From Candidatus Thorarchaeota archaeon (lineage in GTDB: Archaea; Asgardarchaeota; Thorarchaeia; Thorarchaeales; Thorarchaeaceae), in assembly GCA_048882385.1 (NCBI GenBank), contig JBHLRQ010000104.1, forward strand, positions 1 through 10,771: 10,771 bases of DNA, in the 5' to 3' direction. The translations under genes and the position numbers were made by a program. The notes under the pieces were generated by a model. The model searched no databases. It saw only the letters and a program-made list of their open reading frames with translations, and was not told the origin of the DNA. Shown one piece after another: positions 5,583 to 10,206 of the stretch (the stretch's first letter is position 1; every line of letters starts with the position of its first letter).

Positions 5583-6494
5583 TTGGTATTGCAGAGTGAA
5601 ATGAAACTTTTCAAGGAGTCCTTTGACGAACGGCTTGCTGCAGCAACAAAAGAGCAAGTTCGTATCGTCATAAAAGAACAGTACGCGGATGCTTTTGATG
5701 TTCTATCTGACTGTGAGAATGCAAATCTCATCCCTGGAATTATAGGTCCTCCAGGTGTCGGCAAGACCTTACTATTACGAGCTTATGCAGAAAAAAGCAA
5801 TAGAGACCTATACTGGATTACTGGAGACGAAGGAGTCCGTCCATCGCATCTAACAGGAGCTTTCAACCCAAGCATTGTGTTGAACAAGGGATTTACACTG
5901 GAAGCATTTGAGCCTGGACCATTACTCAAGAGCATGGTCTTTGGCGGAGTATTCGGTCTCAATGAAGGAAATCGTCTGAGTGAGTATGTTCAGAATTCAC
6001 TGCTTGATCCGTTTGAGGAGAGATCTATCAATGTGCAGAGATTGGGTAGGATTCGTGCTCACGAAGGCTTCTATCCAGTTCTGACAATGAATCCTGAAGA
6101 GATGAGTGGAGCACACAGACTGAGCGAGGCGTTAAGAGACCGTGTCAGAGTCTGGATTCGTCTTGGATACCCACGTAAGGAAACAGAAATTGAGATTGTC
6201 AAGATGAACTGCCCAGAGTACAACTTGAGTGATGCAGTTCTGGAGAAGGTCTATGGTCTCGTATCATCAACAAGAGTCAATACAGACATTGAAATCCCAG
6301 CAAGTATCAGGGCAGGAATTTCCATATCTCGTCTTGCCGCTCAGATGACAAAGAGGCTGAAAGAGAAGACTATCTCTCACAGCACGCTTTCAAAAGCTGC
6401 AACATATGTACTGGTTGGAGCACTTCGTTTCAGACCGGGAATTGATCCCGAACCTGCTGTGAACTCATTGGTCAGACGGAATCTGGGGAGTTAA
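5583..6494 (+). CDS. MoxR-family AAA+ ATPase (GvpN/CoxD/NorQ-like)
   Basis: Walker A GPPGVGKT (5745-5768), helix-2 insert PSHLTG and FEPGPL, Walker B variant VFGLNEGNR, sensor-1 TMNP, LSEALRDR arginine finger, lid motif PASIR. The start may instead be ATG 5601, which is preceded by GAGTGA. Confidence 0.92.
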   Translation: MVLQSEMKLFKESFDERLAAATKEQVRIVIKEQYADAFDVLSDCENANLIPGIIGPPGVGKTLLLRAYAEKSNRDLYWITGDEGVRPSHLTGAFNPSIVLNKGFTLEAFEPGPLLKSMVFGGVFGLNEGNRLSEYVQNSLLDPFEERSINVQRLGRIRAHEGFYPVLTMNPEEMSGAHRLSEALRDRVRVWIRLGYPRKETEIEIVKMNCPEYNLSDAVLEKVYGLVSSTRVNTDIEIPASIRAGISISRLAAQMTKRLKEKTISHSTLSKAATYVLVGALRFRPGIDPEPAVNSLVRRNLGS

Positions 6495-6498
6495 TACA

Positions 6499-9051
6499 AT
6501 GGCTACTCAGCCTAGAGTAACTCCTGTACCAAGTAACGCCCCCCTATTCGCTCACGAGTTCACGAAAAGAATGAGAGCTAGAAAGGATGTTACAAAGAAG
6601 CCTAGTGTACGACAAACACAGGCAATACCTCAACTTCTATCGGCCAGGTTCTTTAGAAAAGGAGAACTCAATCTTGAAGACTTTTTAGAAGCTGCTGTAT
6701 TTTCGACATTTCCAGCTGATCAGGACATTGCTCGTGAGGTGGCAGAGGACATTCTTCTTGGTCGTGAAAAGGTCACCCGACCCAAGTTATCGGATAAAGA
6801 GAGATCGGAATTGGCTGCTGCTGCAGCTAGACAGAACACTGATGCTTTGAAGGCTGTCATGGACCAGATTAGACGTGAACAAGAGTTAGCCAAAGTCATC
6901 AAGAAGGATAAAGTTCAGGCGGGGTATGATTATCTTCAGGATTTGCAGCAGAACGGTGACCAACAGCTCTACCAAGCTGCTACCAACTATCTCACTGATG
7001 GAGACATCGTTCTTCGCGGAATTACAAGTAATGAAGAACTAAAAGAAGTCGCTGGGAGTCAGCTTCTGGACAAAGCTGGAGCATTATCTTCGGATGATAT
7101 TCAGAACTCTCCAACTCTCGATGTACTTGATGAACTCTGTGAAACATCAAACGCTGCAGAACAGCTAGCGGCAAAGGCTCTTCGTCAAGATGGAGATGTG
7201 ATGGAGAATTTCGAGTCACTCGCAGGAGTCGACACATCAACAGCTGCACGTGCATTGCGTCATATCGAAGAGATGGGTACCTTGACGCAGGAGGAACGTG
7301 AGTCACTTGATCAAACCCTACAGAATGAGCTCAATGATCTAAGTGAAGTTGCTGATTACGCTTCAGAGATGAAACGACTTCCTGATAATCTGGACGAACA
7401 TATCAAAAACGCACCCAGTCAATACTCATTGAATGATGCTGCAGCCTTTGCTGATAAAATCAAGAAACATACCGGGCAAGACATCATGGATGACTTGCTG
7501 AAGGCGTATAATGAGGAATATGACAACGGCGGACATAATCATGTTGACATGAGACAGCTTTCAGAGACAGCTCGTGATAACAAAAATTGGGATGACCTTC
7601 TTGAAAAGGAAACAGAGTCAACAATTCAGGATGCACACTCACGATCATCACCTTCTGACTTCTTGAGGACTGAAGTTGCCCAAGGAGTGGGAATGGCTGG
7701 CAATTTACCATCATCCCATACAAAAGAAGAATGGTCCAAGTCTATGCAGAAACTAGCAAATGCAGCAGTAGAAACCTCTCCAACAAAGACTCATCTTCGG
7801 ACCACGGTGAAACAGCTATCAAGGATGGGGCAAGTACCATCCAAAGAAACCATTCGAGAAGCTGGTGAACGCTTAGGCATGACTGAGGCAGAAATCCTTG
7901 AACTCCTTAATCCTTCATACGATGTGATCAAGAAGCTTATTGAGGGTGGTCTTGAGGACTTCGATAGATTACACAATCTTATTTCAGCTGCAGGTTTGAC
8001 TCACCAACAGATGCGTCAACTTGCAGACATTGCTGCAGAACAAGGAAATCAAAGTGCACTAGGTGCCATTGCACACGAAGACCTACATGCAGCACTTGGA
8101 ACTACAAGTCAGCAGTATGGCTATGGTCAACGACGCTACGGAGCCGCACCTGGGAGTGGTGATGGTTCTCAAGCCTTTGACAAAAATCGGGCTGAAATGG
8201 CTATGGGCGGTCTTCTTGGTGGACCTGCAACCAACATTGTTAGAATCTGGTATGCGTATCGAAACCAACTACCTTTTGAGATCAAGAAGCAGCTGCGTGA
8301 GATAGCCAAGCGTCTACTTATTGATCTTGGTATGAGATATGCTCGCCAAACAATGGGTAGTAGTATGTTGGGAGGAATTCAGGAATCAACTACAGTTCGA
8401 CCATTTAAGATTGGAGATGACATGGATTTGATTAACCTTGAGGAAACGATTGACTCACTCCTGAGTCAAGGTAGGGCAAACTTCAAGGTGATAGAGACCT
8501 CAGACTTTCTTGTGACTGAAACCTATCAAGGACACCGTGCATTCTATTGGGCTCTTGATAAGAGTGGATCTATGGATTCAGCTGAGAAATTAGGAATGTT
8601 AGCAATTTCAGTCATGGCTGGCTTGTATGGAGTCAAGAAGGATGATTTTGGTGTCGTTCTCTTTGATAATGATACACATATTGTAAAGAGAATGGCTGAG
8701 AAATCTGTTTCCGTTGAAAAAGTTGCATCAGATCTCCTAGAGGCTAGAGCTGGTGGAGGAACAGGGGGGGCTGTGTCTATCCGGATGGCTCTTGAAAATT
8801 TTGAGGATACACGAGCCAAGGAAAAGATCTTCGTGTTTTCCACTGATATGTTTCTAAGTGATCAACAACAGTGTGAGGAACTTGCCGAGCGAATGAAACC
8901 ACTAGGTATCAAGATGATAATTCTGGTTCCAAAATCATCTTACAATCCACAGGCTGCTAATAGTCTTGCAAGGAAAGCTCATGGTGTGGTTTTAGATATT
9001 GCATCGGTTGAAGAGTTGCCGGAAAAACTACTACGAGTTACTAACTACTGA
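6499..9051 (+). CDS. Large VWA (MIDAS) domain protein, MoxR partner: N-terminal AAA-lid-like segment, long acidic helical middle, C-terminal VWA
   Basis: MIDAS DKSGS (8557-8571), GGGTGG (Thr) and FSTD (Asp). A CoxE-like pre-VWA motif VRPFKIGDDMDLINLEETI precedes it. The gene starts 4 nt after the ATPase stop. Confidence 0.9.
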   Translation: MATQPRVTPVPSNAPLFAHEFTKRMRARKDVTKKPSVRQTQAIPQLLSARFFRKGELNLEDFLEAAVFSTFPADQDIAREVAEDILLGREKVTRPKLSDKERSELAAAAARQNTDALKAVMDQIRREQELAKVIKKDKVQAGYDYLQDLQQNGDQQLYQAATNYLTDGDIVLRGITSNEELKEVAGSQLLDKAGALSSDDIQNSPTLDVLDELCETSNAAEQLAAKALRQDGDVMENFESLAGVDTSTAARALRHIEEMGTLTQEERESLDQTLQNELNDLSEVADYASEMKRLPDNLDEHIKNAPSQYSLNDAAAFADKIKKHTGQDIMDDLLKAYNEEYDNGGHNHVDMRQLSETARDNKNWDDLLEKETESTIQDAHSRSSPSDFLRTEVAQGVGMAGNLPSSHTKEEWSKSMQKLANAAVETSPTKTHLRTTVKQLSRMGQVPSKETIREAGERLGMTEAEILELLNPSYDVIKKLIEGGLEDFDRLHNLISAAGLTHQQMRQLADIAAEQGNQSALGAIAHEDLHAALGTTSQQYGYGQRRYGAAPGSGDGSQAFDKNRAEMAMGGLLGGPATNIVRIWYAYRNQLPFEIKKQLREIAKRLLIDLGMRYARQTMGSSMLGGIQESTTVRPFKIGDDMDLINLEETIDSLLSQGRANFKVIETSDFLVTETYQGHRAFYWALDKSGSMDSAEKLGMLAISVMAGLYGVKKDDFGVVLFDNDTHIVKRMAEKSVSVEKVASDLLEARAGGGTGGAVSIRMALENFEDTRAKEKIFVFSTDMFLSDQQQCEELAERMKPLGIKMIILVPKSSYNPQAANSLARKAHGVVLDIASVEELPEKLLRVTNY

Positions 9052-9789
9052 TCACATTGGAGAATAACCAGTTCTCTCTGTAAGAGATTTTTCCTTGGAT
9101 TCGCAGACCCAGAATTTATACGCGCAGATGTAATCCTCAGTTCCTCTAAGGTCAAGAAGTCTTGAACTAAACAGTCTTCGCATAATTCTCATGTATCTAA
9201 AGAATGGGTCTCCGGGTGGAACTATCTCTGCAACACAATTTACCTGGTAGCTTTGGGCCTCAGGTGCTGTTTCTTGAGACCAGAAAAAGCTAAGTGAAAC
9301 TCTTGGATCGCGTTGAATATTTTGATAGGTCTGATCACCATACATTTCAACCGCTCCAAGCCGGAATCGATCTATCTTGCTATCATCAAGCATTATCTGT
9401 TGATACAGATCAATTCTCTCTTCAATTGTATCTTGAAACGATCTTCCTTGAAATGCTAGTTCTGCTCCTTCTAGCTCAAGTATTTTGTCTTCTAGAGCAT
9501 CGTCATTGAGCGTAAGTCGAATCAACTTCTTTGCAGAGTTTACTGGAAAAATGCCAGTTGAATTCACAGTGGAAACTGTTGGCTTCATCAAGGTCGCTTC
9601 ATAGAGGCACTTCAGTTTCTCGTTTGTATCTTGCACACCCTCAAGTGTATTGACGATAGCTTCGTATATCGCATCTGGAATAGCATTAAGGGGAAATGAA
9701 ACCTTAAGACCACTGATATCAATCTCAATCCTTCTCAATTCGCGATCGATGAACTTGATTGCAGAGGGCTTTTCATCTGACACATTCAT
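9052..9789 (-). CDS. Pyridoxamine 5'-phosphate oxidase-like (FMN-binding split barrel) family protein
   Basis: PTVSTVN...VNSA and EMYGDQTYQNIQRDPRVSLSF...SYQVNCVAEIV match the split-barrel pattern (t..Nl..nP.vsl.f...syqi.g.aei). ATG 9789, preceded by GGGG, is preferred over TTG 9807. Confidence 0.7.
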   Translation of the reverse strand: MNVSDEKPSAIKFIDRELRRIEIDISGLKVSFPLNAIPDAIYEAIVNTLEGVQDTNEKLKCLYEATLMKPTVSTVNSTGIFPVNSAKKLIRLTLNDDALEDKILELEGAELAFQGRSFQDTIEERIDLYQQIMLDDSKIDRFRLGAVEMYGDQTYQNIQRDPRVSLSFFWSQETAPEAQSYQVNCVAEIVPPGDPFFRYMRIMRRLFSSRLLDLRGTEDYICAYKFWVCESKEKSLTERTGYSPM

Positions 9790-9860
9790 AACCCCATCTA
9801 ACTGCAAAAGATTCTCTCAAAGGCTGTATTTTAACATATGTCGGATTATTGAAACCTACT

Positions 9861-9918: not shown

Positions 9919-10206
9919 ATGATGAACATGGTTGAAGCGTTTGAGATCGACTCCCAAGCTAGAATGGTGGCATATGAGGGCGATTCTATTGAAGTCGATA
10001 CAAGCAAAGTTCTCGTGTTTGTTGTGCATGAGGCAAGAACTGTCTATCTGTGGAGGGGAAAGAAAGCAGACATTTTTGAAAAATTGATGGGAACTAGGGT
10101 TGCTGCAAAATTAAGCCACACATATTCAGAGTACAGAATTCGTCCAATCTCAGAAGGCAATGAACCAGCTGCATTTCTGCATTTGATTGGAACGAAACTC
10201 AAGTGA
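9919..10206 (+). CDS. Single-domain gelsolin (Asgard ProGel-type actin regulator)
   Basis: 95 aa matching the gelsolin-repeat consensus along its length: VDTSKVLVFV, TVYLWRGKKA (iy.W.G..s), IFEKLMGTRVAAKL (long helix, E..A..l), IRPISEGNEPAAFLHLI (v.eG.E...F..l). Confidence 0.88.
   Translation: MMNMVEAFEIDSQARMVAYEGDSIEVDTSKVLVFVVHEARTVYLWRGKKADIFEKLMGTRVAAKLSHTYSEYRIRPISEGNEPAAFLHLIGTKLK

Follow-up and report, generated by a model that had tools for sequence, protein, structure and literature searches.

How does a VWA adaptor hold on to the MoxR-class ATPase that is encoded next to it? The question is raised by a gene pair on contig JBHLRQ010000104.1 of Candidatus Thorarchaeota archaeon (assembly GCA_048882385.1). 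The window is the whole 10,771-nucleotide stretch of this contig that was analysed. A MoxR-class ATPase and a VWA partner protein are encoded there in the same direction, and the VWA gene starts 4 bases past the ATPase stop codon. The initial annotation had proposed that the VWA protein begins with a second copy of the lid, the small helical domain of its ATPase. We conclude with high confidence that residues 11-87 of the VWA protein share ancestry with the small lid domain of the partner MoxR-class ATPase. The ATPase retains a full lid of its own, and the domain is therefore an extra copy. The adaptor is probably anchored to the ATPase by this lid-like domain. The complete statement, in which a lid-derived domain anchors on the ATPase and works by mimicry of a lid, is one towards which we lean only slightly.

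Profile comparisons were performed by hhalign. The N-termini of the VWA protein were taken either from 30 Thorarchaeota homologues or from 123 diverse homologues, which were drawn from a profile search of 1.84 billion protein representatives. The partner ATPases were taken either as a set of 28 or as a set of 45, in which 17 from distant Asgard families were added. When the 30 Thorarchaeota N-termini were compared with the 28 ATPases, a single match was found, with VWA residues 14-67 on ATPase residues 219-274 (P 0.0076); the hhalign probability of this low-diversity comparison was only 5%. With the 123 N-termini, the P value was 8.6e-5 against the 28 ATPases and 8.2e-8 against the 45 ATPases, the latter with a probability of 94.5% and VWA residues 14-68 placed on ATPase residues 219-275. 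Against the distant partner ATPases alone, the P value reached 7.5e-9 and the probability 95.8%. Every significant comparison was in one register, that of the initial annotation, in which R26 lies on R231 and P-S-V-R38 lies on P-A-S-I-R243. Columns were shuffled in three comparisons, and none of the shuffles reached the observed score (0 of 200, 0 of 150 and 0 of 150). Scores of 9.6-11.7 were obtained with reversed profiles, and all shuffled and reversed controls remained at or below 24.8. As a negative control, the N-terminal profile was compared with the rest of the VWA protein, and a P value of 0.093 was obtained. The lid was also the matched region in thirty canonical MoxR proteins (Pfam AAA_lid_2), where PSxR fell on SPR (P 1.1e-3, 0 of 150 shuffles).

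The same relationship was found from the other direction. A hidden Markov model (HMM) made exclusively from the Thorarchaeota N-termini matches the partner ATPase lid in 6 of the 19 distant loci. These six matches score 11.5-18.0 bits, with independent E-values of 1e-5 to 1e-3 among 117 fragments of open reading frames (ORFs), and one of the distant partner lids matched by the HMM reads 'PPSIRSSIGMAKML'. R26 and R38 are spaced by 12 residues, the same spacing as between R231 and R243 of the ATPase. Conservation of the S-x-R motif had been named beforehand as a point on which the idea of a lid copy depends, and R38 is present in all 123 homologues. R26 is kept in 122, F17 in 120, D61 in 118 and P35 in 103; S36 is kept in 107, and 12 others have T at this position. 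On the ATPase side, P239, S241 and R243 of the sensor-2 motif are found in 45 of 45 partners. As judged from the aligned sequences, the domain appears to match lid helices 2-5, and only the first lid helix, which follows core strand 5, would be lacking. Both signature arginines of the lid seem to be kept, R26 at the 'TR' and R38 at the S-x-R sensor-2 position. The lid-like domain is present across Asgard archaea, which indicates that it is old.

The fold of the domain was predicted with AlphaFold2 (AF2). The model has a predicted local distance difference test (pLDDT) score of 88.3 and a predicted template modelling (pTM) score of 0.80, with helices at residues 11-27, 37-54, 59-68 and 72-87. 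The same helices recur in the full-length VWA model. Among the best 50 structural matches listed for the domain, 12 are AAA+ chains. The matches include the lids of MoxR, BchI and dynein, and the NorQ lid was the top match in a second-look comparison. The matched ranges in BchI, CbbQ and NorQ are the C-terminal ends of the chains, and those in dynein and MCM are ranges that we take to be small domains. The NorD N-terminal domain is absent among the best 50 matches listed, which is not evidence that the folds differ. The search for AAA lids by Foldseek that the initial annotation had asked for lists lid matches, but none of them, nor anything else in the PDB, lies below E 0.6, which counts against the lid assignment. 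The predicted structure is consistent with a lid and is not decisive.

Further results weigh against the shared ancestry. The proposal had been argued from an ungapped alignment of 22 residues with 6 identities. Both peptides are indeed present, ATPase residues 230-251 (window 6270-6335) and VWA residues 25-46 (window 6571-6636), and with a BLOSUM62 score of 21 they form the best ungapped 22-mer between the ATPase lid (196-303) and VWA residues 1-90. However, 82 of 300 shuffles of VWA residues 1-90 give a pair that scores at least 21, and 71 of the 233,778 22-mer pairs across both whole proteins score as high. BLASTP of the ATPase against the VWA protein returned 10 segments with a best E of 1.8, and the 22-mer pair was absent among them. 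The 22-mer pair taken alone is no better than chance. At the DNA level, the sole in-register repeat between the two regions is 13 nucleotides long with 11 of 13 identical (6388-6400 and 6683-6695), and it merely encodes LSKAA and FLEAA. In a low-diversity alignment of full-length VWA proteins, the register was the same, and the P values of 0.1 with the ATPase and 0.06 with the lid were not significant. When the MoxR set was compared with this alignment, the match fell elsewhere (P 0.29 and 0.47). No Pfam family was found in VWA residues 1-110 at E up to 10, and none was found in the lid of the ATPase (193-303) either. Because Pfam also misses the ATPase's own lid, its blank on the VWA domain is a test of low power. 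A profile search of the PDB sequences at E up to 10 gave three matches, 6xu6_DA (0.008), 1eq1_A and 9b0x_D, none of which is a lid. The profile search of 1.84 billion proteins returned VWA-type N-termini and one spurious long protein, and no ATPase.

The second lid copy of the initial annotation is supported by the profile comparisons, the HMM hits on the partner lids, the predicted fold with its lid matches and the S-x-R arginine. The downstream helices that had been called similar fall inside the profile alignment (F62-A66 against L269-A273). The start of the protein had to be corrected. MRARKD had been taken as its N-terminus; the ORF starts at the ATG at 6499, 24 codons upstream, and residues 1-24 are conserved in homologues.

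A complex of one ATPase chain with the VWA N-terminal domain was modelled in three runs, together with controls. In this test, 116 of 157 solved complexes and 2 of 215 mismatched pairs attain the score mark. The three runs scored 0.64, 0.65 and 0.63, and the best control scored 0.30. The runs share at least 97% of their contacts, and the pLDDT of the partner is at least 81. On the ATPase, the modelled interface consists of residues 36-49 and 54 (the helix and strand before Walker A), 171 and 174 (after sensor 1), and 186 and 189-193 (strand 5); no ATPase residue beyond 193 takes part. On the domain, it consists of residues 36, 38-39, 41-53 of the long helix and the 68-75 loop, and it includes S36, R38 and Q39. 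The PSVR motif is predicted to sit beside the nucleotide pocket, as would be expected for a covering lid. Within the domain, residues at the interface show higher conservation than the others (0.60 against 0.47, permutation p 0.033).

A mechanism for such an anchor can be drawn from clade-7 AAA+ rings. According to a published account (PMC6987120), the lid is repositioned in these rings, where it closes the ATP site of the adjacent subunit and supplies sensor 2 to it in trans. The modelled arrangement would be similar to that of RavA, BchI and MCM, in which the ATP site is also closed by a small domain foreign to the large domain it covers; in the known cases, the small domain comes from a neighbouring ATPase subunit and not from another protein. 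In the mechanism that we propose, the orphan lid would take the place of the neighbour lid on a subunit with an uncovered pocket; the seam of an open spiral would be the likeliest location. There, R38 would point at the nucleotide, and the binding of the adaptor would thereby be tied to the nucleotide state. The linker, the helical body, the conserved segment before the VWA fold and the MIDAS-bearing VWA domain would then act on a target. That the anchor works by mimicry of the neighbour lid, as the complex model suggests, is a possibility whose chances fall somewhat short of even. A further step, in which the adaptor completes the AAA+ active site of one subunit, probably at the spiral seam, with R38 of the orphan lid serving as a sensor 2 in trans, is tentative and rather unlikely. 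If it were true, that subunit would need the adaptor in order to bind or hydrolyse ATP, and the grip of the adaptor would depend on the nucleotide.

Five points stand against mimicry. The ATPase side of the interface is not more conserved than the remainder (0.696 against 0.693, p 0.49). The modelled single ATPase chain leaves the neighbour-lid site empty, and in a closed hexamer none of these sites is free. It is also possible that the model arranges a lid-like domain according to AAA+ packing that it has learned. Finally, in the two solved relatives, NorD and CobT, the N-terminal domain lies against the exterior of the small domain and not on the nucleotide pocket. The docking by lid mimicry that was proposed at the outset passes the controls of the complex model, yet this support is computational and comes from one ATPase chain with the neighbour-lid site vacant.

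An alternative is that the lid-derived domain binds like its N-terminal counterparts in NorD and CobT, against the outside of the ATPase small domain, as a passive tether or stator, with R38 in a salt bridge there. We consider this doubtful. In the NorQ-NorD system, an iron-insertion chaperone of cNOR (PDB 9qh4-9qhg), a MoxR-class ATPase is likewise paired with an adaptor made of an N-terminal domain, a long linker and a MIDAS VWA domain. NorD's N-terminal domain anchors on the ATPase, where it binds the small helical subdomain of NorQ (PMC13036017), and the NorD VWA domain matches the VWA part of the present protein. In the aerobic cobaltochelatase motor CobS-CobT, the domains follow one another in the same order, the N-terminal one binds the ATPase, and a conserved helix-2 arginine holds the contact with the small domain of CobS, on the outside of which the domain sits (bioRxiv 10.64898/2026.10.09.757910). 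The tether is further favoured by the lack of a free neighbour-lid site in a closed ring and by the ATPase-side conservation, which is not enriched. However, the complex model places no contact past residue 193 of the ATPase, and the analogy is one of role and not of fold. As described in these sources, CobT's N-terminal domain is M48C-peptidase-like with a beta-sheet, which sets it apart from a lid by description, and that of NorD has 241 residues and binds on the outside of the small subdomain, whereas the domain here has about 77 residues, is homologous to a lid and is modelled on the large domain of the ATPase. NorD-type N-terminal domains are called not conserved among MoxR partners in an earlier report (PMC9976466). 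The initial annotation had described the coupling as a mode that it did not recognise from RavA-ViaA, CbbQ-CbbO, NorQ-NorD or CoxD-CoxE. Anchoring by an N-terminal domain is in fact shared with NorD and CobT; what differs is that their domains are unrelated to this one and sit on the ATPase small domain.

A second alternative, also raised by the initial annotation as a fusion relic, is that the domain is a leftover of a BchD/ChlD-like or midasin-like ancestor that lost its P-loop core, and that it was kept for folding or target binding and not for contact with the ATPase. The order of lid-like domain, variable linker and VWA domain echoes BchD/ChlD, and the Joint Genome Institute (JGI) names two family members 'Mg-chelatase subunit ChlD'. 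The best-scoring solved relatives of the ATPase among PDB sequences are the AAA domains of midasin (summed E 1e-30). The VWA part matches both the Rea1/MDN1 MIDAS domain and the NorD VWA domain by Foldseek with a probability of 1.00, slightly closer to the former (E 1.9e-4) than to the latter (E 6.5e-3). Midasin/Rea1 also resembles the pair in joining an AAA_5-type motor with a MIDAS domain; it differs in that a single chain carries its MIDAS domain together with six AAA modules, while each ATPase chain here has one module and the adaptor is a protein of its own. These are hints of a midasin link. The midasin score adds up the scores of many domains, and the best single domain scores 26.9 bits against 66.9 for the bacterial 2r44_A, so that per domain the ATPase is no closer to midasin than to bacterial MoxR and the scores do not single midasin out. 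The pair as a specific prokaryotic relative of midasin was accordingly not adopted.

The relic is improbable on other counts as well. No fused ATPase-adaptor form and no P-loop core ahead of the domain were found among 147 family representatives. The domain begins within the first 41 residues in 146 of them and at residue 11 in this protein. There is also no P-loop core in the models of the VWA protein, and in NCBIfam the BchD/ChlD model TIGR02031 does not match it. BchD of the Mg-chelatase (BchI-BchD/ChlI-ChlD) has a whole AAA+ module, and here there is the lid alone. The domain matches the lid of its own partner (P 8e-8 to 7.5e-9) far better than generic MoxR lids (P 1e-3), which points to the partner family as the source of the domain. 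That surface arginines are invariant and that the complex model passes its test both speak for a functional contact.

Convergence or accident, in which a generic four-helix bundle happens to carry S-x-R, is very improbable, given a profile signal that climbs with diversity in one fixed register and is not reached by its controls, the direct HMM matches to partner lids, the two equally spaced arginines and alignments that are mutually consistent through MoxR.

The coupling of MoxR ATPases to VWA proteins is only now being worked out, and the NorQD and CobST structures appear in 2026. The anchors of NorD and CobT are of unrelated folds, while the anchor here would be a copy of the ATPase's own lid with the arginine that a neighbour lends. 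If the docking is as modelled, a protein that is not an ATPase would complete or cap an AAA+ nucleotide pocket. As a tractable system, the pair gives access to an uncharacterised machine of the archaea most closely related to eukaryotes. In full-text literature searches, which did not cover supplements, no lid-derived domain on a VWA partner and no such Asgard pair was found described.

Table 1 Features of the ATPase and VWA genes, with window positions.
Feature	Position	Strand	Basis
MoxR-class (AAA_5) ATPase, 303 residues	5583..6494	+	ORF; Pfam AAA_5
Complete lid (small helical domain) of the ATPase itself, residues ~196-303	6168..6491	+	aligns over its whole length to AAA_lid_2 MoxR lids
Part of the ATPase lid matching the VWA N-terminal domain, residues 219-275	6237..6407	+	hhalign
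ATPase sensor-2 motif P-A-S-I-R (239-243)	6297..6311	+	aligns to S-P-R of MoxR
VWA partner protein, 850 residues	6499..9051	+	ORF; full-length homologues
N-terminal lid-like four-helix domain, residues 11-87	6529..6759	+	AF2 model
M25-R26 of the VWA protein	6571..6576	+	aligns with T230-R231 of the ATPase and 'TR' of MoxR lids
P-S-V-R (35-38), putative copy of the sensor-2 motif	6601..6612	+	alignment; within predicted interface
Variable linker, residues ~88-115	6760..6843	+	alignment columns 92-120 vary; pLDDT 43-55
Large all-helical middle region, residues ~136-533	6904..8097	+	confident full-length model
Conserved pre-VWA segment, residues 620-678	8356..8532	+	many invariant columns; pLDDT 30-45
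VWA domain, residues 680-848	8536..9042	+	MIDAS motif, Foldseek

The order of N-terminal domain, flexible linker and VWA fold is borne by the full-length model, which is confident at residues 13-87, in the helical body and in the VWA domain. The stretch of low confidence after the lid-like domain reaches residues 88-135. No Pfam family reaches its cut-off in the middle region, where only weak and scattered matches below threshold were found at E up to 10. A Gly-rich gap separates the helical body from the conserved segment ahead of the VWA domain. T618-G626 and S630-P635 are invariant and lie directly ahead of the first VWA strand. By analogy with the NorD finger and with the CobT shaft, which enters the pore from a position right ahead of the VWA fold according to the CobT report, residues 620-678 are a candidate pore shaft or finger for the ATPase. 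The MIDAS residues D687-x-S689-x-S691 (window 8557-8571) are invariant in 30 of 30 sequences, and Pfam VWA_2 scores 20.3 bits on the protein, below its cut-off of 27. The whole VWA protein also resembles Ro60, with a helical repeat and a VWA domain, at a Foldseek probability of 1.00 and a template modelling (TM) score of 0.17-0.28.

The ATPase scores 58.3 bits with Pfam AAA_5 (cut-off 22) and can be aligned from end to end with canonical MoxR proteins (hhalign P 1.6e-25). Its Walker A motif is GPPGVGKT (55-62) and its sensor 1 is N170; all 45 partner ATPases share G55-T62, N170 and R243. The Walker B motif ends in N127-E128 (h-h-h-h-N-E, window 5961-5966) and not in the canonical D-E. N127-E128 is likewise present in all 45 partners, with N127 aligned to the Asp of canonical MoxR, and it may cause weak Mg binding or slow hydrolysis. 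In the NCBIfam scan nothing came near a cut-off, with GvpN at 60.6 bits (cut-off 266.8) and MadB at 40.5 bits (cut-off 475), and PADLOC gave no match.

The named homologues are all from genome bins of Thorarchaeota and other Asgard archaea (Promethearchaeota). The family of the VWA N-terminal domain is present in 140 of 301 genomes of the Asgard phylum and is concentrated in two families, with 57 of 76 and 59 of 68 genomes. Where it can be checked, the VWA gene always adjoins the ATPase gene: the ATPase gene is directly upstream in 48 of 55 loci, the remaining 7 being without any upstream DNA, and an upstream position was likewise seen in all 19 distant loci. Many genomes of the second large Asgard family carry two copies of the lid-like domain. 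In six genomes of this family, the match to the N-terminal domain holds one in-frame TAA or TAG near its start, which is likely a match that runs across the stop codon of the upstream ATPase gene in the same frame.

Several neighbouring genes were also observed. An ORF on the minus strand (window 9052-9807) that abuts the 3' end of the VWA gene is PNPOx-like (Pfam 26.9 bits, cut-off 28.1) and is kept beside the VWA gene in 49 of 55 loci. A 95-residue ORF on the plus strand (window 9919-10206) matches Pfam Gelsolin weakly (E 5.8e-4, 20.1 bits, cut-off 21). This Gelsolin-like ORF is retained a short way downstream of both genes in 48 of 55 related loci, reaching as far as one with a VWA protein of 43% identity, and it is missing at the most distant locus, L057. 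At the other end of the window, two minus-strand ORFs with overlapping ends (2-652 and 649-2145) encode membrane proteins with several zinc-ribbon-like CxxC motifs. They are partly alike, stand together in 21 of 55 related loci and have only a faint Pfam match to IBR. Elsewhere, the same genome has a canonical MoxR gene (AAA_3 and AAA_lid_2) with the sensor 2 'GGSPRAS'. The ORF beside it has a D-x-S-G-S-M VWA-like motif, and the two form a second MoxR system without an orphan lid.

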